This document shows, piece by piece, positions 19,205 to 28,079 of a DNA stretch of 28,079 bases. The stretch is from assembly GCA_026983775.1 (NCBI GenBank), contig JALSTK010000174.1:1-28079 (forward strand), given 5' to 3'. Position 1 is the stretch's first letter, and every line of letters begins with the position of its first letter. The notes beneath the pieces were generated by a model. That model did not search any database, was not told where the DNA came from, and saw nothing but the letters and a program-made list of their open reading frames with translations. The DNA comes from Calditrichia bacterium (lineage in GTDB: Bacteria; Calditrichota; Calditrichia; Calditrichales; Calditrichaceae). The position numbers and the translations under genes are program-made.

Positions 19205-19977
19205 CATGACCTCTGACCGAGCGGATGTCGGGCACGCATGGATGCGCGGAACGGGATATTTTAATGAAACTCACAAAGCTCACAAAGTATAAAAAAGTCT
19301 GATAAAAACCTTTGTGCTCTTGGTGACCTTTGTGGTATAAATTAAACCCTGTAGAGAAAAGATTTTGACGGAAACTAAGAAACACACAAAGCTCACAAAG
19401 TGCACAAAGTATAAATTGTGCGTAGTGCGATGAATACATGCCAAAGGGACAGGCGGTATCCTTTCTTACCCAATCAGTCTCTTGAGCGAAACGCGCCGTT
19501 TCTTTCTCATCCAGAAATAGCGGCATTTCACTCTTCCATGCCTTCAAAAATCCCCTCTGACCGACCGGATGTCGGTCACCCCGTAAGAGCGCATAGATGC
19601 TCTGAACGGGATATTTTAATGAATCACACAAAGCACACAAAGTACACAGAGAATAAAAAAGTCAGAAAAAAACCTTTGTGCTCTTGGTGACCTTTGTGGT
19701 ATAAATTTGGCCTCTGTAGAGAAAATATTTTGACGGAAACTAAGAAACACACAAAGCTCACAAAGTGCACAAAGTATAAATTGTGCGTAGTGCGATGAAT
19801 ACATGCCAAAGGGACAGGCGGTCTCCCTACACACACAATCAGTCTCTTGAGCGAAACGTGCCGCTTCTTTCTCATCCAGAAATAGCGGCATTTCACCCTT
19901 CCATGCATTCTATAATCCCCTCTGACCGACCGGATGTCGGGCATCCCGCCGGAGCGCATGGATGCGCGTGGCGGGGT
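19205..19977. repeat. Tandem direct repeat: two units of about 344 and 365 bp plus the start of a third, each beginning with a CRISPR-repeat-like half site
   Basis: Units begin at about 19211, 19555 and 19920 with (aat)cccctctgaccga(c/g)cggatgtcgg. The unit bodies are near-identical and each carries 5 CACAAAG and 2 CTTTGTG heptamers. The third unit merges into the terminal CRISPR repeat. Confidence 0.8.
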
Positions 19978-20452
19978 GAATAACGGGGTATTTTTCTACT
20001 GTGAGCACCGATACGATATACCGGAATCTGCGCAAGCGGTCTCAATCCCCTCTGAATAACGGGGTATTTTTCTACGAAAGAAGCAATCCGCGATCATTTT
20101 CGTATCCAAGAAACGAGTCTCAATCCCCTCTGAATAACGGGGTATTTTTCTACCAGGGTCTTGTTGACGTTGTAATCGTGGACGATTTTGTCTCAATCCC
20201 CTCTGAATAACGGGGTATTTTTCTACTTAATCAATCGGTGGACGGTTTCAGGCAAACAACGTCTCAATCCCCTCTGAATAACGGGGTATTTTTCTACAAG
20301 TTCAAGTTCAACTTCGGAAGGACACCTGCTATCTCTATGTCTCAATCCCCTCTGAATAACGGGGTATTTTTCTACACGGTATAAAATACGAATGTAAGTA
20401 TCTGCATTCGAGCAGGTCTCAATCCCCTCTGAATAACGGGGTATTTTTCTAC
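19978..20452 (-). CRISPR. CRISPR array: 6 full 37-nt repeats plus a disrupted terminal repeat
   Basis: The repeat on the + strand is gtctcaatcccctctgaataacggggtatttttctac. Full copies lie at 20039-20075, 20117-20153, 20190-20226, 20261-20297, 20339-20375 and 20416-20452, with a 3-prime fragment at 19978-19999. Spacers are 39, 41, 36, 34, 41 and 40 nt, all unique. The repeat has an internal hairpin CCCC...GGGG. In minus orientation it ends ...GATTGAGAC, a type I/III-like 8-nt handle, and the leader abuts cas2, so transcription is on the minus strand. Confidence 0.9.
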
Positions 20453-20706
20453 TCCTCAGGATCCGTGCCTTGCAGCCCAGGGGCTCGTGCTATGCAAATT
20501 ATGCCTGGTATGAAATTTTTACCTCTTGACCTGCTCATTTCCAAGAAATTCATCCTAAGTTATTGTTTTTTATGACGGACGATGGACTTTTTTATCTAAC
20601 TCATTGTTTCTATAAAAATTAGCATACATCTGATCCAGAACGACAATTCTGCCGTACTTTTACCCTTCCTTTTCTGGAATGTACACATTATTTTCGCTTT
20701 TTGCAA
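20453..20706 (-). promoter_or_regulatory. CRISPR leader (AT-rich) between cas2 and the first repeat
   Basis: ~250-nt non-coding AT-rich segment bounded by the cas2 stop (20707) and the most recently added repeat (20452). Confidence 0.5.
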
Positions 20707-21021
20707 TCATAAGAGAACTAATTGCGGTTCCTCATACACCTCCCCGTATCCCAAAATTTCGATACGGGTGACCTCCTTCTGCGCAAGGCGATAAAACCGA
20801 ACACTGTCTTTTTCTTCATCGATTTCCCGGGCAATTTTCAATTTTAATTCCTGCAATTGGCCGGAATCGAGATAACATTCAAAGACACTCTTCTGGGTAT
20901 GTTGGCCATAGCCTTTTAATAGCTTCATAATCCGTGTACGGGAACGGTTATCCACAATATCATAGGCTATGATAACATATTCTCTATCTATGGACATATC
21001 CCGCATATTCACTTTCCTCAT
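20707..21021 (-). CDS. cas2: CRISPR-associated endoribonuclease Cas2
   Basis: YVIIAYDIVDNRSRTRIMKLLKGYGQHTQKSVFECYL is the Cas2 signature. In-frame ATGs lie at 21021, 21006 and 20997. The 20997 start would give a 14-nt overlap with cas1. Confidence 0.85.
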   Translation of the reverse strand: MRKVNMRDMSIDREYVIIAYDIVDNRSRTRIMKLLKGYGQHTQKSVFECYLDSGQLQELKLKIAREIDEEKDSVRFYRLAQKEVTRIEILGYGEVYEEPQLVLL

Positions 21022-21961
21022 CTTTTAAATAACGCATAAAATGCCATACCTGACGTTCAATGATCTGCAGGAAATTTAATTTCATATTTTTATAACTGAA
21101 TTTTTCACCTATTTTCTTACGATATTGATTAAAAAAGATATGTAAACCTTCTTTATTGAAAATAGTGGAATCCTTTTCTTTTAAAAAATGGTCGGCTTTA
21201 ATCTGCTTTGTATTAATCAGGTGTATGACCAGAGTATCCGCCACAGGCGCCCGAAATTCTTCCATTAAATCGCTTACCAGAGCCGGATGACCGTATTTTA
21301 ATTCATGAAAAAACCCACAATAAGGGTCTAAACCCGAAGCTTCTACAAAAGCATATACATTATTGAACAACATCGTGTAAGCCAGGGAGAGTAAAATATT
21401 CAATGGATCCGGCGGAGGATGCTTCAGACGTTTTTTAAATCCGAAATCCTCGATAAGCAAAGCCGGTAGATTTCTGAAATAGATATTGGAAAAGCTTCCT
21501 TCAAAACCCCGTATCTGGTCAAGAGTCGAGGCAACTTTCAGGCTACGCAGCATATTATCCTGTTTTTCCCGAAAAGTTTGATAAACCACATCCGATTTCT
21601 TTTTTAGCATACGGCCATAATTGATTGTTTTGGCGCGAATAACCTGACGGCTGAAATGTAATCTAAATTCCGCGTCACGAAGCTTTTCATACTGTAGCCG
21701 GCGAATGTAAACATTAGGGGAAAGCGGCGGGCTTAAACGCCCCTTATATCGTCCATCCATACTTAAAAAGGCTATATCGATATTCTTAGCAAGACAATAG
21801 CCGGTTAAGGCAGCGCTTACTTCCACCCTACCCATAATGATAATCAGAGAAAGATTATTCATGGGTTGGACATATATTTTTTTACCTTCTTTATACAAAA
21901 CAATCTGCCCGCCGGTTTTACTTAAACGGGAGCCCTGTTCACTCACTACGATGACACTCAT
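20984..21961 (-). CDS. cas1: CRISPR-associated integrase Cas1
   Basis: 325 aa with conserved Cas1 blocks: GFEG..., DPLNILLSLAYTML, GLDPYCGFFH and ALVSDLMEEFR. It overlaps cas2. Confidence 0.9.
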   Translation of the reverse strand: MSVIVVSEQGSRLSKTGGQIVLYKEGKKIYVQPMNNLSLIIIMGRVEVSAALTGYCLAKNIDIAFLSMDGRYKGRLSPPLSPNVYIRRLQYEKLRDAEFRLHFSRQVIRAKTINYGRMLKKKSDVVYQTFREKQDNMLRSLKVASTLDQIRGFEGSFSNIYFRNLPALLIEDFGFKKRLKHPPPDPLNILLSLAYTMLFNNVYAFVEASGLDPYCGFFHELKYGHPALVSDLMEEFRAPVADTLVIHLINTKQIKADHFLKEKDSTIFNKEGLHIFFNQYRKKIGEKFSYKNMKLNFLQIIERQVWHFMRYLKDEESEYAGYVHR

Positions 21962-22079: not shown

Positions 22080-23519
22080 TTATTTTTGTTCGGCTAGAAC
22101 AGGCAATACGAAATGAAAGTGTTTATATTCGGTATTTAATATGGTAAGCGCTAACGCGGACACTTCCTTTTTATACGATGCCCGGGTGCTAATCCATACT
22201 TCGTCAAACAATAAAAAATAAATCCGGCCGTGTTCGCCTTCTTCCACCAAACCGGCATCTAATTTGATTATAGCATGATTAAAAAAATCGGCGGCACTGC
22301 CCTGAATAAGTCGATTCATTATTTTTCCGCTTAGATTCGGTTCCTTCTTATCCAGAGGTATTTTACGGCCCATTACAGTTTCTACAACGCCCGTCTGATT
22401 ATATTTCATCCATAACTCGGCCCGCAATTCATCCAGGGCCGGAAGTAATTTCCAAAAGAAAGGGCCGGGTTTAAAATCCGGCCGGCGCGGGCCGCCATTA
22501 ATCAGACTGTTCAAGAAGCGTTTGGCAACGCCGCGTCCCTCAGGATTAATTGCCAAATAAATATCCTGTTCTGGAATATCAGCCAGGCTGATCAAATGTT
22601 CATCGAGCAGAATGTTTAACAAAATCATAGGTTCTATGCTTTTATAATCATAAATAAGCAATTCCTTATCCGGCGGTTTAAGACTTTGCAACCTTTTTGC
22701 AGAAGGCCAGGTTTGTATGCCGGGATTGCGGTAGGTTATCCTTCCGGTAGCCGGGCCAATATTCAGTTGTGGGAAAACAAGTTGTCCTTCGATCCACAAG
22801 CCGTGTCGTTCCAATTTGTCTACCACTAAGTCTAATGCAGTTAAAGTTTTAATAGGTTCACGATTAATTTGCAAAGGCACTTTAGGCCTTATTTTTTTCA
22901 AAGGTTTTAACAATTCTTGAATCGTTTCGTCCAATTCTTCCGCTCCCCATAGTTTTTCCAGTAATAAAGCGCACTGGCGACGATGATACGGCACGTTGTT
23001 TTCTTCCTTAGTACCCTGATGAAGCAGATCGAGCAGAAAAGCGCGGTCTGTCTCATTACTATTGAAATAGGCATCGACCAACGATTCATAATCGCCGCGT
23101 CCGTAAAAATATAACATATTTTCTTTCATGTTCTGGCAATCTCTTTCGTGAATAATTTTCAGTAATCGCGTACGCAGACGTAAATTTTTATCTTTAAAAC
23201 CGTTAAATAAAATCGATCTGGCCTGAGGATAAGAGGCGCAATAAATCAATAAAGCGGAAAAATCCTGTAAAGAAAATAAATACCGGGCATAATCCTGACC
23301 TTGCAATGCAAGGCCGAGCCGTTCCACCCAAAAGGCGGTTTCCAAACGGATGGAGGCGTCCCGGTCATATAGTAATGGGATGATAACCCGTTTATTTTTA
23401 ATAAGCGAGCTATGTTCCAGCATCTTTTCCAGTTTTAGAAAAGCAAGAGCTTTTTGCCGGTTTTCACGGATAATTGATATTTTCTGTACAATTTGTTCGG
23501 GGGCTTCATTTTCCGGCAT
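22080..23519 (-). CDS. Family-A (Pol I-like) DNA polymerase domain protein: N-terminal helical repeat domain plus a thumbless palm/fingers core, directly upstream of cas1
   Basis: ATGRITYRNPGIQTWP matches Pol I TGRLSSSDPNLQNIP. LIYDYKSIEPM matches motif A (DYSQIELR). GRGVAKRFLNSLINGG is motif B (O-helix) with Arg and Lys retained. NRLIQGSAADFFNHAIIKLD...RIYFLLFDEVWI matches QGTAADI...HDE of motif C. Only about 15 residues separate the GLWIEG block from TGR, where Pol I has a thumb of roughly a hundred residues. No exonuclease motifs were seen. The gene ends 118 nt upstream of cas1 on the same strand. Confidence 0.7.
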   Translation of the reverse strand: MPENEAPEQIVQKISIIRENRQKALAFLKLEKMLEHSSLIKNKRVIIPLLYDRDASIRLETAFWVERLGLALQGQDYARYLFSLQDFSALLIYCASYPQARSILFNGFKDKNLRLRTRLLKIIHERDCQNMKENMLYFYGRGDYESLVDAYFNSNETDRAFLLDLLHQGTKEENNVPYHRRQCALLLEKLWGAEELDETIQELLKPLKKIRPKVPLQINREPIKTLTALDLVVDKLERHGLWIEGQLVFPQLNIGPATGRITYRNPGIQTWPSAKRLQSLKPPDKELLIYDYKSIEPMILLNILLDEHLISLADIPEQDIYLAINPEGRGVAKRFLNSLINGGPRRPDFKPGPFFWKLLPALDELRAELWMKYNQTGVVETVMGRKIPLDKKEPNLSGKIMNRLIQGSAADFFNHAIIKLDAGLVEEGEHGRIYFLLFDEVWISTRASYKKEVSALALTILNTEYKHFHFVLPVLAEQK

Positions 23520-23543: not shown

Positions 23544-23984
23544 TTAAATTTCCCATTCTTTATGCAATTCGGCGGCGACCGCATATTCCTGTTTAGCCTG
23601 ATCGTCTTTCCCGATAAGACGGAAACACTCGGCCAGAGCAAGATGGGCTTCGTAAAAATCGGCGTCATAAATTTTCTTTTTAAATTCTATGGCCCGCTTG
23701 TAATAGACTTTGGCCTCCTGAGGTTTATTTTGCTTCAAAGAAATATTACCGAGAGCCAGCAAGATTTTATGTTTGGCTATTTTATCGCGACGCAGGGCTT
23801 CCATTAAGTCTACTATGGCCGCATGCAGATCATCCAGGCGCTGGTACAGTTCGGCACGATGACGATAAATATAAGCAGCTCGTCGTTTTTTGAGTGCCTT
23901 ATCATACAGTGTAAATGCTTCGGTATAGCGCTTTTGAGAAGCCTGAATATAGGCATATACTCTTTGGCCTGGGGATGAGCACAT
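23544..23984 (-). CDS. TPR-repeat protein, C-terminal fragment of a likely frameshifted TPR gene
   Basis: Repeated TPR-like helices (AELYQRLDDLHAAIVDLMEAL, LALGNISLKQNKPQEAKVYYKRAIE, EAHLALAECF). It overlaps the upstream TPR ORF in a different frame. Confidence 0.55.
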   Translation of the reverse strand: MCSSPGQRVYAYIQASQKRYTEAFTLYDKALKKRRAAYIYRHRAELYQRLDDLHAAIVDLMEALRRDKIAKHKILLALGNISLKQNKPQEAKVYYKRAIEFKKKIYDADFYEAHLALAECFRLIGKDDQAKQEYAVAAELHKEWEI

Positions 23985-24628
23985 AAGGGAGCGATTATGC
24001 GTTCGGCTTCCGAATATTTTTTTACCCCGGCATACCCTTTTGCCAGATTATATTTTTTGAAATGTGGAGCCAAATAGTTACGTTCATCCTCCTCGTCTAC
24101 TTTTTTAAAACAGGCTAATGCGTTCCCATAGCTTCGCAGATCGTAATAGACTTTTCCCAAGTAAAATATGGATCTAACATAATATTTTGCGCCCCGTTTT
24201 AAATGTGCATCGTCCTGATAACTCTGATAAATAACGATGGCCTGTTTCAGAGTCTCTTTTGCCTTAAGGAATTTGAGCATATTATACTGAGCAACCCCTT
24301 TACGGTATAAACAGACCAGATAATGCGGAAAAAGTTCCAGAGCCAGATCGAACCATTCGATCGCTTCTTTCCATTGACCGGCGTCATAAAAAGTATAGCC
24401 GATACTGTAATAGGGTTGGGCGCGGTTGCTTTCCCGTTCCAGCCATTGTTTATAGCAGTATCGGGCTTCATCATAGCGATCCAACTGCGAATAAGCAAAG
24501 CCCAGTGCACGCAAATGTTCCACCCGGGCATTGCCGGACTCGACGCTCGGTTTAAGATAATCGATCATATCCTGCCAGCGATTGGTTTGTTGTAATTCAT
24601 TAATTTTTTGCAGATTTATATTGTCCAT
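23813..24628 (-). CDS. TPR-repeat protein, N-terminal part of a likely frameshifted gene
   Basis: Multiple TPR motifs (ALGFAYSQLDRYDEARYCYKQWLE, YYSIGYTFYDAGQWKEAIEWFDLALE, LGKVYYDLRSYGNALACFKK). The last ~50 codons in this frame read as non-TPR junk while the +1 frame continues TPR. Confidence 0.55.
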   Translation of the reverse strand: MDNINLQKINELQQTNRWQDMIDYLKPSVESGNARVEHLRALGFAYSQLDRYDEARYCYKQWLERESNRAQPYYSIGYTFYDAGQWKEAIEWFDLALELFPHYLVCLYRKGVAQYNMLKFLKAKETLKQAIVIYQSYQDDAHLKRGAKYYVRSIFYLGKVYYDLRSYGNALACFKKVDEEDERNYLAPHFKKYNLAKGYAGVKKYSEAERIIAPLCAHPQAKEYMPIFRLLKSAIPKHLHCMIRHSKNDELLIFIVIVPNCTSAWMICMRP

Positions 24629-24714: not shown

Positions 24715-24939
24715 TTATATGTAATCCGCCGGCACTCCGGCATCGAGGTAGATCTTTCCTTTCATAGATTCCCGGATTTGGCCCACCAGAAGCCATTCTT
24801 TTTCTTTTTCGAGAAAGAGCAGTCGGATATTCGGATTCAAACGGAAAAAGCCGGAAGAAAGCAGATGGAGCGCTTCTTGTGTATTGGTAACCAACAGCAA
24901 TGAAACGTTCCGGTTGCGTTTTACGGAAAAAGTAGTCAT
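24715..24939 (-). CDS. Small protein, DUF2283-like candidate antitoxin; hypothetical
   Basis: 74 aa. The ATG at 24939 is preceded by AAAGGAGG. The C-terminal pattern LFLEKEKEWLLVGQIRES resembles the DUF2283 D-x-D-G-x-LVGIEI block. Assignment is weak. Confidence 0.35.
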   Translation of the reverse strand: MTTFSVKRNRNVSLLLVTNTQEALHLLSSGFFRLNPNIRLLFLEKEKEWLLVGQIRESMKGKIYLDAGVPADYI

Positions 24940-24977
24940 GATCTGCCTCCTTTCTTCATTAAATTAGGTTTTTAAAG

Positions 24978-25013
24978 AAAGCAGAGAAGGAGATAAGCGG
25001 GCCTCCCCTTCTC
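24978..25013 (-). terminator. Intrinsic terminator-like hairpin
   Basis: Perfect 10-bp stem gcagagaagg/ccttctctgc with a 16-nt loop. On the minus strand it is followed by uuucuuuaaaaa. It lies between the DUF4258 gene and the 74-aa gene. Confidence 0.4.
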
Positions 25014-25111
25014 TGCCTCAGGCGGTGGGTCGGTTTGTGGGTAAAGCTGAGTTGATTTGTTTGACCATTTAAGTACCGTACACGTCCCTCATTATAAAAA
25101 GCATTTTCTTT

Positions 25112-25399
25112 TTAAGTATGCATGTATCTGATTTTTTTCAACCACTTTCTGTTTTTAAATACGGTGATCAGAGTTTCCGTTTTGGGATCACAGACCAGAG
25201 TCAGTCCTTCCCACTTTTCCGGATTTTTCGGTTTGAATTCTTTCTGCATTTTTTTCAAAGCCCGTTTGCCCAGAAAAAAGTAGAGTGAATTTTGAGCATA
25301 AACTCGTTGACCGAACCAGCGGGCAGCATAAATCATCTTTTCCGGTATATGACGTTGATTCATGCGTTGAACCGCGTGTTTTGTAATAGTAATGTTCAT
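25112..25399 (-). CDS. DUF4258-family putative RNase toxin
   Basis: ATG at 25399 with GGAGGAAGG 6 nt upstream gives MNITITKHAVQRMNQRHIPEKMIYAA...GLTLVCDPKTETLITVFKN. This matches the DUF4258 pattern (HA.eRm.eRgI...VVtVy). The ORF-track N-terminal extension lacks an RBS. Confidence 0.55.
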   Translation of the reverse strand: MNITITKHAVQRMNQRHIPEKMIYAARWFGQRVYAQNSLYFFLGKRALKKMQKEFKPKNPEKWEGLTLVCDPKTETLITVFKNRKWLKKIRYMHT

Positions 25400-25531
25400 G
25401 TCCTTCCTCCTATTCTTCTGTTTTACGGCGATTAAAGTAAAGGAGAAAGTGTATGGAACCATGAAAAATAAAATCGGGATGGAGCTTACCGAATTCGGTA
25501 AGGATATCTAAAAGGAACGGTTGAACAACTC

Positions 25532-26590
25532 TTAGTCGTCTATGTTGCGGGAATTAAAATTAAGCGGAATAAAATATTTATCCAAAACCGCTTCTTTATC
25601 GATTTTTATTTTAAAAAGAGAATATAAAAATTCGGGCAAAGAGGGTTCAAGAAATTTATGGTTAATACTCGAAACATCTTTTTTAATATTATCCACATCG
25701 AACTTCCCTTCTTTACCGGAACCATATTCATCTTTATAAAGCTTCTCGAGTTTACGATTATCCGCTATGTTTTGCGGTTCTTTTCCTTCGAACAGGAATT
25801 GGTATATGGCGAAGAGTTTGGGTTCAAAAACAACCGGAAATTCTTTTTCTCCCCATTTGATGAGCAGGCGGCGGGAATTTTTCTGTAAATCCGCCCGTAC
25901 CTCTTTTGCCAAATCTTCCAAATCCAATTTGGTTAATTTAATTAATTCTTCATAACTTAATTGTCGAATGTCGCCAAAAAGCTTTTGCAGCTTTTGGCGT
26001 AAGCGTATAAAAGGGATGCGGGCATAATCGATACGCGTCCGGGTATCATCAGGAGCAGGATAAAAAAAATCGTGGTCCTTTTCTCTTTCATCGGGATAGA
26101 TTAATACGTGTGACAGTTCATCTTTGGCCCGGCCGAATAAATTTAAGGCAATGGCCATATAACTACTCATGGTTTTGCGGCCGCCGGCAAGAGAACAAAA
26201 CAACCGTGTATTTTCCTCAAAGGTTTTTTCTTTAACAAAATCTATTATTTGATTGGCAGCCGCTTCATTCTCCGCCACGGATCGAACATCATTAAGCGGA
26301 GTTCCGTCATGGGCTTTAAGAATTTTGATCTGGAAAGAAGGAATTTTCTGTTTTTGTAGATCGTAATCTTCAAACATTCGATATATTATATTCTGCTTCA
26401 AAACCCTATCCTGCATTTTTTCCTTGCCGTGTGTGGTCGTTAAGACATAAATCTCGCTGATTGTAATTCCTTGTTGAACCACCAGGTTATACAGCGTTTC
26501 CGTTAAAATTTGCGGCGTGGAGCCGGCCACGGTGATTAAAATATTTTTAGAGCTGTCTTCCGTAATCTTCCCTTTCTTATCTACCGCCAA
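25532..26590 (-). CDS. CARF-domain protein, Cas_NE0113-like (CRISPR-associated Rossmann fold); C-terminal domain unassigned
   Basis: N-terminus KNILITVAGSTPQILTETLYNLVVQQG...EIYVLTTTHG matches CARF motif 1 (strand, G-x-SP, helix) and a DxTHG-like motif 2. No Rx4-6H HEPN motif was found in the C-terminal 200 aa. The apparent start is TTG at 26590, overlapping the vapC stop. No in-frame ATG precedes the CARF strand. Confidence 0.5.
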   Translation of the reverse strand: MAVDKKGKITEDSSKNILITVAGSTPQILTETLYNLVVQQGITISEIYVLTTTHGKEKMQDRVLKQNIIYRMFEDYDLQKQKIPSFQIKILKAHDGTPLNDVRSVAENEAAANQIIDFVKEKTFEENTRLFCSLAGGRKTMSSYMAIALNLFGRAKDELSHVLIYPDEREKDHDFFYPAPDDTRTRIDYARIPFIRLRQKLQKLFGDIRQLSYEELIKLTKLDLEDLAKEVRADLQKNSRRLLIKWGEKEFPVVFEPKLFAIYQFLFEGKEPQNIADNRKLEKLYKDEYGSGKEGKFDVDNIKKDVSSINHKFLEPSLPEFLYSLFKIKIDKEAVLDKYFIPLNFNSRNIDD

Positions 26591-26961
26591 ACGGCCGGAG
26601 CAAAATGTTTAAGTATTCTATTGTCTTTGGTCAATAATTTTGCTTTATGAAAATTCACTTCAGCCACAATCAGTCTGTCAAACGGATCGCGGGTCCAGGA
26701 TAAAGGCAAAGCTGCCTGTACAAGGTCGGCAAAATCGGTATGAACGGAAAGAAGCGTAATGGTTTCGCGTAGCTCGCCGACAATAATGGACGGTTCTATG
26801 GTTATCTTTCCGATTTCATATAAAAATTGTAATTCCAGCAAAGAAACCGTTGGAATAAATAGATCGCTGGAATCAATCAAATTTAGCGCTTTTTGAGAAA
26901 AACGGGCAGGGTCTCTTTGGAACAACCAGATTACTATATGGGTATCCAAAAACAATTTCAT
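26581..26961 (-). CDS. vapC: PIN-domain toxin VapC
   Basis: MKLFLDTHIVIW (first Asp), LLELQ (Glu) and TRDPFDRLIVA (Asp) are conserved PIN acidic residues. 126 aa, overlapping the antitoxin gene by 4 nt. Confidence 0.8.
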   Translation of the reverse strand: MKLFLDTHIVIWLFQRDPARFSQKALNLIDSSDLFIPTVSLLELQFLYEIGKITIEPSIIVGELRETITLLSVHTDFADLVQAALPLSWTRDPFDRLIVAEVNFHKAKLLTKDNRILKHFAPAVWR

Positions 26962-27197
26962 GCTTCTTCATCCCATTTCCAGGATTTGAAATTTACCAGC
27001 TCTTCCGGATCGCCTTTCACCACATTTTTGCGCGGCGGTTGACTAAAGAGGCGTTTCGTACGAGGCAAACGCTTATCCAGATCGATCTTTATAATCCGCC
27101 CCTTGCGCTTTACATAGACCGGTTTGCCCGTTTCAAGGACCTGGTCGAATATTTTGTATATCTGGCTCCGAATGGCCGTTAAGGAAATAGTTTTCAT
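26958..27197 (-). CDS. Type II antitoxin (Phd/YefM-like) paired with VapC
   Basis: 79 aa: MKTISLTAIRSQIYKIFDQVLETGKPVYVKRKGR, a Phd/YefM-like N-terminus. It lies directly upstream of vapC with an ATGA overlap. Confidence 0.55.
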   Translation of the reverse strand: MKTISLTAIRSQIYKIFDQVLETGKPVYVKRKGRIIKIDLDKRLPRTKRLFSQPPRKNVVKGDPEELVNFKSWKWDEEA

Positions 27198-27266
27198 TTA
27201 TAGGACCTCCGACCTTATTTACGTACGTAATATACTATATATGCGTACGTATTTCAAATGAAAAGA

Positions 27267-27749
27267 TCATACATCTTCCGTTAATAATTTTCGCGGGTCC
27301 AGATTTTTTTTTAGATACTTGCCGCTTTCCCGGTCATATTGCAACCAGATGGGATGACGGGCCAGGGTTTGCTGTAGCACATTATAGGCCGCCACCGCCA
27401 GGTAAGGAAATCCGCTAGGCACGATATAAATTTGATAATCACGATATTTTTCAGCCAGGGTCCGGCATTTTTGGGCGATGATTTTTTCGGCATCCATTGG
27501 CACATTGCCGCGGGTTAAAACTTCCACGGTAATTTGCCGGCCGAATTGATCCTGCAAGGCGGGTACAATGGGATGGAGGCCTTCGTTGACGATGATGAAT
27601 AATTTTGTTTCCTTCGTTCCGTAATAAGTGTTTGAGATTCTTTCAAATAAATCTTGCGCTTTTTTAAATTCTTCAGACGTTATTTTCGTTAAATTTCTAA
27701 TTAATCGAATTCCGTCCTCAAGCCATTCATTAATATTATTTTGATTCAT
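27267..27749 (-). CDS. Hypothetical protein (alpha/beta, possibly a minimal Rossmann/CARF-like fold) translationally coupled to the upstream HEPN gene
   Basis: 160 aa. The ATG at 27749 overlaps the upstream gene stop by 14 nt (ATGAATCAAAATAA). It has an N-terminal helix followed by strand/helix alternation (KLFIIVNEGLHPIV, YQIYIVPSGFPYLAVAAYNV). No decisive motif was found. Confidence 0.4.
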   Translation of the reverse strand: MNQNNINEWLEDGIRLIRNLTKITSEEFKKAQDLFERISNTYYGTKETKLFIIVNEGLHPIVPALQDQFGRQITVEVLTRGNVPMDAEKIIAQKCRTLAEKYRDYQIYIVPSGFPYLAVAAYNVLQQTLARHPIWLQYDRESGKYLKKNLDPRKLLTEDV

Positions 27750-28079
27750 CTTTAATTAAATCCTTGAATGATTTTAGTAGTTGATACCCTTTCTCTTTTA
27801 ATCTTCCATAATTTGGTTTGTTACTATTTGTAAACGATGCATGATTCAAAGCGTTGCGTATTGGAAAGAGTGTATTTTTAAATTTGATATATTTACTTAA
27901 ATCGTATGTTAATACGTGTTCTATTATTTGAATTTGATCTTCTTTAATTTTCCATTCATTTTTGTTTAATTTTTTTTCTTGAATATGCAATGCAGATGTA
28001 AATAATTGACGATGAACGGAATTATCAAAATTTAGTTCGGTAGCACGGCAACCCAATGAAATAAAATTCTCTTCGAGTA
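27736..28079 (-). CDS. C-terminal fragment of a HEPN-motif protein (Rx4H); N-terminus beyond window
   Basis: The frame is open to the window end; the ORF-track start at 28056 is a TTG with in-frame sense codons upstream. The C-terminus carries FPIRNALNHASF, that is R-N-x-x-x-H, the HEPN RNase consensus. This is as in the C-terminal HEPN of Csm6/Csx1 and Abi-type HEPN toxins. Confidence 0.45.
   Translation of the reverse strand, partial: LEENFISLGCRATELNFDNSVHRQLFTSALHIQEKKLNKNEWKIKEDQIQIIEHVLTYDLSKYIKFKNTLFPIRNALNHASFTNSNKPNYGRLKEKGYQLLKSFKDLIKDESK

Follow-up and report, generated by a model that had tools for sequence, protein, structure and literature searches.

Putative type III CRISPR signalling genes, with a candidate ring nuclease and a predicted CARF–winged-helix protein, beside cas1-cas2 in a Calditrichia bacterium

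Genes at the locus

We analyzed 28,079 nucleotides (nt) of DNA from a Calditrichia bacterium (GenBank assembly GCA_026983775.1, contig JALSTK010000174.1, positions 1 to 28,079, forward strand; this whole stretch is called the window) and in particular the putative type III CRISPR signalling genes at positions 24,715 to 28,079. An earlier note on this DNA had claimed a series of open reading frames (ORFs) in this part, and all of them were present on the minus strand where it had placed them. The ORF list of the stretch showed that the window genes lie on the minus strand throughout, and the rest of the window consists of type IV pilus, metabolic and flotillin genes. The ORFs are not chance occurrences, because the same order of genes is found again in loci with just 31-67% protein identity. 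The features considered first are the following.

L001:1154-4424, beyond the window end, same strand as csx1 and upstream of it: stand-alone receiver-domain (response-regulator) gene, 703-amino-acid (aa) Cad1, 203-aa Nudix
27736-28079, minus strand: csx1 3′ end, last 113 codons, frame open to the window edge (full gene 446 aa in L001 and L002)
27267-27749, minus strand: protein X, 160 aa, overlapping csx1 by 14 nt
25532-26590, minus strand: NE0113-family (TIGR02584 / PF09623 / CARF5) protein, 352 aa, with a TTG start overlapping the vapC stop
25976-26548, minus strand: CARF domain of the NE0113 protein, about residues 15-205, with motifs G-[ST]-[TS]-P-Q and S-x-A-G-G-R-K-T-M-S
25535-25906, minus strand: C-terminal domain of the NE0113 protein, about residues 229-352, predicted winged helix of OmpR/PhoB-type fold
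25112-25399, minus strand: DUF4258-like protein, 95 aa, ATG after AGGAGGAAGGAC, directly downstream of NE0113
24968-25019, minus strand: intrinsic terminator after the DUF4258 gene (16-bp stem 24978-25019), then UUUCUUU

Csx1, Cad1 and Nudix

The earlier note had described a protein ending in an R-N-x-x-x-H HEPN motif and overlapping the 160-aa gene by 14 nt. Both were seen, the motif being R-N-A-L-N-H at 27841-27858 (the fragment reads ...FPIRNALNHASF...), and it is kept in the orthologue of L010. The csx1 gene is truncated by the window end, not biologically. Two other assemblies of the same DNA, L001 and L002, which were found by looking up the exact 160-aa protein, matched the window with 99.945% identity over 10.8 kb and 100% identity over 2.5 kb, respectively. 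They extend it into the full csx1, Nudix and Cad1 genes, which lie consecutively just past the window end.

The full-length protein scored 107.9 bits against TIGR02221 (cas_TM1812), whose cut-off is 76.25 bits; it carries a DxTHG motif (in L001, TIGR02549, E 1e-10, residues 132-157), and it spans the PADLOC CARF2 CARF_HEPN profile end to end (324 bits). Because of these three results, we identify the truncated gene from its sequence as a 446-aa Csx1 with a CARF2-type CARF domain and a HEPN domain, predicted to be an RNase. The note's proposal that extension of the window would reveal a CARF plus HEPN protein was thus borne out, and the gene product is not an abortive-infection (Abi) or toxin–antitoxin (TA) toxin.

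Cad1 contains an A_deaminase domain (E 7e-53) and a CARF domain of NE0113 type. The partnerships of Cad1 with Nudix and of Cad1 with Csx1 have been published already (PMC12993439). The locus resembles the Cad1/CAAD systems (type III-B, Thermoanaerobaculum aquaticum and others; PMC12993439, PMC11645235) in its Cad1, Nudix and Csx1 genes. It differs from them in having both Nudix and Csx1, an additional small CARF-like protein and the putative NE0113 regulator, and its effector module was not observed in this genome.

Related loci

Related loci, cited here by our numbers, have the following gene orders.

L010 (Calditrichaceae metagenome-assembled genome): cas6, cas10 (HD and GGDD intact), csm2-5, Csx1, X, an inserted TumE TA pair and IS200-like tnpA, NE0113, DUF4258, TPR
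L013 (Calditrichota bacterium GD2, complete genome): cas6, Card1-like, cas10, RAMPs, Csx19, RAMP, Csx1, X; a type III-D module
L009: RAMPs, Csx19, ..., Csx1, Csm6, NE0113, DUF4258-like, ..., TPR, PolA-like, cut ORF at the contig end
L006: RAMPs, Csx1-X fusion, NE0113, DUF4258, TPR
L003: Csm6, ..., Csx1, 124-aa gene, NE0113, DUF4258-like, ..., TPR, PolA-like, Cas1, Cas2
L014-17 (NE0113 67% identical): compact NE0113, DUF4258, TPR, PolA-like, Cas1, Cas2
L007 (Microbulbifer thermotolerans): NE0113 directly upstream of cas10, csm2-5, cas6, Card1

The cut ORF of L009 occupies the position that cas1 has in other loci. In the Calditrichota relatives, cas10 effector modules lie directly upstream of the same genes that are found in the window. 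These gene orders suggest that the window holds the accessory arm of a single contiguous type III locus, whose effector module should be found toward Cad1, at the contig break. The earlier note had offered either accessory genes for cyclic oligoadenylate (cOA) signalling or a dispersed type III system. The first was supported by the position of the same genes downstream of cas10 modules in relatives, while the second gave way to one contiguous locus. Its description of a mixed defence island was likewise replaced by a contiguous type III locus, in which VapBC is a variable insertion. Taken as a whole, the genes are probably type III cOA-signalling accessory genes, flanked by the adaptation module on one side and, upstream, by an effector module that was not seen.

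The NE0113-family protein

The 352-aa protein, for which the note had claimed a CARF domain and a TTG start overlapping the vapC stop, belongs to a known family: it matched PF09623 (E 1e-31, 110.6 bits, cut-off 23), TIGR02584 (154 bits, cut-off 80.65) and PADLOC CARF5--CARF (231.8 bits, residues 15-317), and 187 homologues of 340-430 aa were found by a word-indexed search. The TTG start is favoured, as a later start would remove the conserved first strand. The AlphaFold2 model (predicted local distance difference test score 93.4) showed a Rossmann-like CARF fold in the N-terminal domain, closest to Cad1 and to Crn1 (Sso2081, Sis0455); Csa3 and Sis0811 were also among the fold matches.

The C-terminal domain is present family-wide and is built of three strands, four helices, of which the third (H299-317) is the longest, and a terminal beta-hairpin. 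Its fold relatives were VanR (score 8.6), DrrD (8.5), AdeR (8.0), VicR (8.0), ToxR (7.7) and OmpR-C (7.1), with PhoP, KdpE, CpxR and PmrA as further ones. The longest helix contains a motif like that of a recognition helix, S-S-I-N-H-K-F here and S-K-I-N-R-K-L in the family consensus. Because of the order of secondary structures and the place of this motif in the long helix, an OmpR/PhoB-type fold fits the domain. The 2020 CARF classification apparently left the domain unnamed ("CARF5--CARF"), which is explained by the lack of a sequence-level match. No HEPN motif was found in the C-terminus of 120 homologues, as the earlier note had said of this protein; the one R-x6-H shared by the whole family, RxQDxLSH, belongs to the CARF domain. 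Its statement that the output domain was unassigned no longer applies, since the protein belongs to the NE0113/CARF5 family and has a predicted winged helix.

NE0113 was grouped with Csa3 as effector-less, probably regulatory CARF proteins by Makarova et al. 2014 (PMC4012209). Our literature search found no paper on an OmpR-type fold of the NE0113 family, nor any experiment on it. From the model, we predict that the protein is a CARF sensor with a winged-helix output, that is, a cOA-responsive transcription factor, possibly a self-limiting one. It shares with Csa3a and Csa3b, the CARF plus winged-helix factors of Sulfolobales, the N-terminal CARF domain, the C-terminal winged helix, the absence of an enzymatic effector and a position beside adaptation genes. 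It differs from Csa3 in that its CARF domain falls in clade CARF5, together with that of Cad1, and has the GGRKTMS motif, and in that its predicted winged helix follows the OmpR/PhoB (Trans_reg_C-like) topology and begins with a three-stranded sheet; it is also bacterial and linked to type III systems. The winged helix-turn-helix (wHTH) domain of Csa3 is more compact.

The strongest of the alternatives, although an unlikely one, is that NE0113 is mainly a ring nuclease, whose CARF domain would degrade cOA while the winged helix would serve structure or dimerisation, as in Sis0811. The structural closeness of its CARF domain to that of Cad1 and to the Crn1 enzymes Sso2081 and Sis0455 would agree with this, as would the presence of Sis0811 and Csa3 among its fold matches. 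In addition, two features never vary in the family, the Ser/Thr that follows strand 1 (G-S-T-P-Q) and the R-K of GGRKTMS; these are residue types required for Crn1 catalysis, and the related deaminase TaqCAAD degrades cA4 (PMC12993439). However, NE0113 scored only 18.7 bits against the Crn1 model NF040581, whose cut-off is 125, and the locus already has a candidate ring nuclease in X, as well as effectors able to limit themselves. Like a typical regulator, NE0113 stands first in operons, ahead of cas10 in L007 and of the adaptation block in L014-17, and the basic motif S-K-I-N-R-K-L of the putative recognition helix is conserved across the family. The two roles are compatible with each other. 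As for the NCBI name "ring nuclease Csm6", which implies a ring-nuclease role, it is unjustified on the Csm6 side, because the HEPN motif occurs nowhere in the family.

The NCBIfam label of TIGR02584, "CRISPR-associated ring nuclease Csm6", probably spreads misannotation. A short palindrome with a GAATTC or AAGCTT core was found directly after the NE0113 stop in five of six loci; here (TTACCGAATTCGGTAA) it lies in the spacer at 25480-25531 on the minus strand, and the corresponding spacers of L003, L006, L010 and L011 were compared with it.

Protein X

Protein X consists of two N-terminal helices followed by a five-stranded alpha/beta core. Its fold is that of CARF/SAVED proteins, with Cap5 SAVED (score 8.9), VC1899 (8.7), Csm6 (8.7), SSO1393 (8.7), Can2 (8.5) and Csa3 (8.3) as fold relatives. 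The conserved motifs are IVNEGxHP, TxGN, VPSGxP, HPxxLQxDR and LDPR. N55, H59, G81, G113 and L136 are invariant in the homologues, and the P-S-G turn is conserved too. Since N55 and H59 sit after strand 1 and G113 after strand 3, we infer that these residues occupy the usual ligand-binding positions of CARF proteins.

Only one relative of X was found by the word-indexed search, and 23 were found by an exhaustive HMMER scan of 1.84 billion representatives. Several of them form the last 110-150 residues of 547-559-aa proteins that begin with a TM1812-type Csx1; in these Csx1-X fusions (P0124, P0126, P0128 and P0131), the HEPN motif lies ahead of the X domain. Where X is a separate gene, its overlap with csx1 measures exactly 14 nt in each of three genomes: that of the window, L010 and L013, the X of the last being 44.5% identical. 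The closest named homologues of both Csx1 and X are from Calditrichota without exception. In the fused homologues P0126 and P0131, the alignment to the Csx1-Csx20 profile reaches about 75 positions into the X domain.

Because of the CARF/SAVED fold in the model, the overlap with csx1 and the C-terminal fusions to Csx1, X is likely a ring nuclease, or a cOA sponge, that acts on Csx1 signalling and represents a rare family not described before. The earlier note had named a ring nuclease as one possibility for this protein, and the fold and the fusions agree with it. X is like Csx1-Crn2 ("fuse to defuse"), Csx16, Csx20 and Crn4/Unk01 in its size of about 110-160 aa and its position after, or fused to, Csx1, and a five-stranded alpha/beta core as in X has been described for Csx16 and Csx20. 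It differs from these extrinsic ring nucleases in its own set of motifs (NEGxHP, GN, PSG, QxDR, DPR) and in the great rarity of its family, which has 23 representatives and named members from Calditrichota.

An unlikely alternative is that X is not an enzyme: it would soak up cOA as a sponge, tune Csx1 allosterically as a second sensor subunit, or inhibit the HEPN domain in the manner of an antitoxin. Csx15, a small CARF-like protein, initially showed no ring-nuclease activity and was proposed as a possible sponge (PMC12409355). The translational coupling and the fusions imply a 1:1 stoichiometry of X and Csx1, as expected of an inhibitor, and X carries the additional N-terminal two-helix segment, which has no assigned role. 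On the other hand, its fold is CARF/SAVED rather than MNT or another known HEPN antitoxin, its invariant N55 and H59 and the P-S-G turn with the invariant G113 are found where CARF proteins bind their ligand, and in Csx1-Crn2 a ring nuclease is already known to be joined to Csx1.

We rejected several other relationships of X. In L003, the gene that takes the place of X (124 aa) is 15% identical and gave no profile match. Crn4/Unk01 has been described as unlike any known structure, whereas X is clearly CARF/SAVED-like. A phage-derived anti-CRISPR was discarded after no relatives were found in 2.9 million viral contigs. The Pfam family Pam3_gp32 gave a weak match below its threshold (21.4 bits against 27).

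The DUF4258 gene

The note's DUF4258 label was supported by the orthologues. The window copy scored 23.2 bits, under the 25-bit cut-off of PF14076, while six of six orthologues matched this family (best E 6e-7). The gene follows NE0113 in 10 of 10 related loci of this clade, with measured copies in L003, L006, L009, L010 and L011 and DUF4258-annotated ones in L014-L017. In the first five, its identity (46-60%) exceeds that of NE0113 (31-41%). It lies about 110-180 nt after NE0113, as a single gene that a hairpin precedes and a strong terminator follows. This terminator, which the note had described as a hairpin, has a 16-bp stem with a folding energy of −25.5 kcal/mol (z −3.07) and was partly caught by the consensus scan as well. 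PF14076 is a toxin family of the RelE/ParE superfamily (BECR) with unknown activity, usually encoded after its antitoxin (PMC11980606). No antitoxin gene was found adjacent to this one. Judged from the sequences, the DUF4258 gene is a core part of the locus, a conserved neighbour of NE0113 and the adaptation block.

The arrangement is similar to Cami1, in which a CARF domain is fused to a RelE-family mRNA interferase, in that a CARF sensor is tied to a RelE/ParE-superfamily (BECR) protein in a type III locus. It differs from Cami1 in that the CARF and DUF4258 proteins are encoded by two genes, with a spacer of 110-180 nt that contains a hairpin, in that the CARF protein has a predicted winged helix of its own, and in that any functional link between the two is drawn from synteny. 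The boldest reading, which we regard as quite unlikely, is a toxin module gated by cOA and made up of NE0113 and DUF4258, like Cami1 divided over two genes. NE0113 would silence the gene, or neutralise the toxin in the way of a DNA-binding antitoxin, until cOA from Cas10 releases it; the same switch might also activate TPR-PolA-like-Cas1-Cas2. If such a switch were true, type III interference would be coupled to spacer acquisition through a dedicated family-A polymerase.

Proposed mechanism and its evaluation

According to the reading as type III accessory genes, recognition of target RNA would lead Cas10 to make cOA, most likely cyclic tetra-adenylate (cA4). This would activate the HEPN RNase of Csx1 and the deamination of ATP to ITP by Cad1, and Nudix would limit the toxicity of ITP. 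X would bind and cleave, or sequester, cOA and so turn Csx1 off, which is the task performed by Crn1-4, Csx16, Csx20 and the Crn2 domain of Csx1-Crn2 fusions. NE0113 would bind cOA in its CARF dimer, and its winged helix would alter the transcription of neighbouring genes; the most plausible targets would be the DUF4258 gene and the TPR-PolA-cas1-cas2 adaptation block that NE0113 heads. The control of adaptation genes by Csa3a is a parallel to this role. VapBC would be a selfish passenger.

Most of these families are known, and Csx1, Cad1-Nudix and CARF sensors are textbook type III signalling. Two conserved partnerships in the stretch have not been described before. X, which is either coupled or fused to Csx1, may represent one more ring-nuclease family. 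The NE0113/TIGR02584 family is widespread, uncharacterised and mislabelled; its output as predicted would suggest control of transcription by cOA, and an OmpR/PhoB-type output would place it as the equivalent of Csa3 in bacterial type III systems. The NE0113-DUF4258-TPR-PolA-like-Cas1-Cas2 block gives a hint that cOA signalling and adaptation may be connected, and that there may be a CRISPR-associated polymerase, of which our searches found no earlier description. The observation and main interpretation of the earlier note were largely right.

Several results weigh against parts of this interpretation. No cas10, csm, cmr, cas6 or RAMP gene was found in the 28-kb window and the 5.7 kb beyond it (33.8 kb in all), and neither scans of species genomes for exact matches to the window DNA nor scans of metagenomes with the CRISPR repeat gave a match, so the effector module was not found. 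The 96.5-kb contig terminates in 125-nt tandem repeats 5.7 kb past the window end, and for this reason Cas10 is not demonstrable in this genome. X alone had no significant match to the Csx16, Crn1, Crn3, Csx1-Csx16 fusion or Csx1-Csx20 fusion models of NCBIfam and PADLOC, and its proposed ring-nuclease role thus rests on fold and gene context. A relationship of X to the C-terminal domain of the 576-577-aa Csx1 fusions P0248 and P0266 was rejected (hhalign probability 0.5%). The C-terminal domain of NE0113 gave no Trans_reg_C or PDB sequence match, with members searched singly against Pfam and a 28-sequence profile searched against PDB sequences, and the winged helix is assigned from the predicted structure. 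Some CARF plus wHTH proteins, for example Sis0811, are ring nucleases, not regulators. No regulated promoter was identified. A conserved operator between NE0113 and DUF4258 was sought by alignment, and only locus-specific palindromes were found; those after the NE0113 stop may be terminators, attenuators or operators, and may simply be terminators.

It is very improbable that the region is a mixed defence island in which the CARF genes are orphaned, as relics or as responders to an unlinked signal, and VapBC and DUF4258 are independent TA or Abi modules: the lack of cas10, csm, cmr and cas6 in the window and the 5.7 kb beyond, the sign of decay in a split TPR gene and the finding that about 25% of Csx15 genes come from genomes that lack type III loci would fit it, but the contig breaks exactly where relatives carry the effector module, the reading frames of all the CARF genes are intact, the array has six identical repeats with a type III/I-style ATTGAGAC end, and DUF4258, which has no adjacent antitoxin and is conserved with NE0113, is unlike a free TA module.

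VapBC and the variable insertion site

The Phd/YefM-VapC pair that the earlier note had reported between X and NE0113 was found, together with a promoter-like site.

27229-27257, minus strand: promoter-like site (consensus match only, 10 of 12 positions) TTGAAA-17-TATATT, within the 69 nt that precede phd
26958-27197, minus strand: Phd/YefM-like antitoxin, 79 aa (PF02604, E 1e-6, 28.8 bits, just under the cut-off of 29.8)
26581-26961, minus strand: VapC PIN-domain toxin, 126 aa (PF01850, E 4e-11, 44 bits)

The two genes overlap by 4 nt (26958-26961), and the acidic residues D6, E43, D92/D95 and D113 of VapC are present. The promoter-like sequence is consistent with the pair being a transcription unit of its own. 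A phd copy with 74% identity lies upstream of NE0113 in L014 and L015, where VapC is a 33-aa remnant. The gap between X and NE0113 holds the following.

Window, 26581-27266, minus strand: full VapBC pair
L010:10540-12170: TumE TA pair, IS200-like tnpA and a duplicated X 3′ end
L011:569-1030: tnpA alone
L014:936-1273 (L015 likewise): Phd and the 33-aa VapC remnant
L016: an unrelated gene
L006: nothing

Because this site is variable among the loci, VapBC is a passenger and not a core part.

The adaptation block and the CRISPR array

Downstream of the DUF4258 gene, the window continues into the adaptation block.

24715-24939, minus strand: 74-aa ORF with a good Shine-Dalgarno sequence
23544-24628, minus strand: TPR gene (Pfam TPR), split into overlapping ORFs 23813-24628 (271 aa) and 23544-23984 (146 aa)
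22080-23519, minus strand: family-A DNA-polymerase-like (PolA-like) protein, 479 aa (PF00476, E 3e-15), directly upstream of cas1
20707-21961, minus strand: cas1 20984-21961 (PF01867, E 4e-81) and cas2 20707-21021 (PF09827, E 3e-23)
19963-20455, minus strand: CRISPR array by repeat search, six intact 37-nt repeats and a degenerate terminal copy

The note had taken the 74-aa ORF for a DUF2283-like gene paired with DUF4258, and this was not supported. The ORF had no match in Pfam (E<0.1), NCBIfam or PADLOC and no tblastn homologue in related loci. The closest relatives lack the ORF, their DUF4258 and TPR genes being just 112 nt apart. DUF2283 (PF10049) was rejected for want of a profile match, and a likeness to a 62-aa ORF of L009 was not supported by tblastn. 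The 74-aa ORF is a doubtful or strain-specific gene.

The TPR gene is intact in L003, L009, L010, L011 and L014-17 (266-410 aa). Its split form in the window is likely a frameshift, a pseudogene or an assembly error.

The PolA-like protein matched PADLOC RTasPolA (E 4e-12), the PolA that partners UG9 defence reverse transcriptases. Pol I-like motifs are preserved in it, namely DYKSIEP (A), RGVAKRFLN (B), QGSAADF and FDE (C). Its homologues are 36-42% identical; they lie beside cas1 in L003 and L014-17, and the contigs of L009 and L011 end before cas1. Our literature search found no published link between this gene and cas1-cas2.

The 37-nt CRISPR repeat on the minus strand is GTAGAAAAATACCCCGTTATTCAGAGGGGATTGAGAC, with the 3′ end ATTGAGAC. 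Such an end is the usual source of the 8-nt 5′ tag of CRISPR RNA in Cas6-processed type I and type III arrays; cas6 was not found in the window. As the repeat ends in this way on the minus strand, the leader would be the stretch of 251 nt that separates cas2 from the first repeat.

A 365-bp tandem duplication was found at 19235-19965 of the window, immediately beyond the degenerate terminal repeat of the array. A 125-nt tandem-repeat array upstream of Cad1 (L001:298-936) is 82-88% identical to it, in the same orientation. With this related array at the opposite edge, the CRISPR-cas island is bracketed by direct copies of one repeat element. The tandem-repeat units hold pieces that resemble both halves of the CRISPR repeat (..AAAATATCCCGTTC.. 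and ..TCAGAGGGGATT..).

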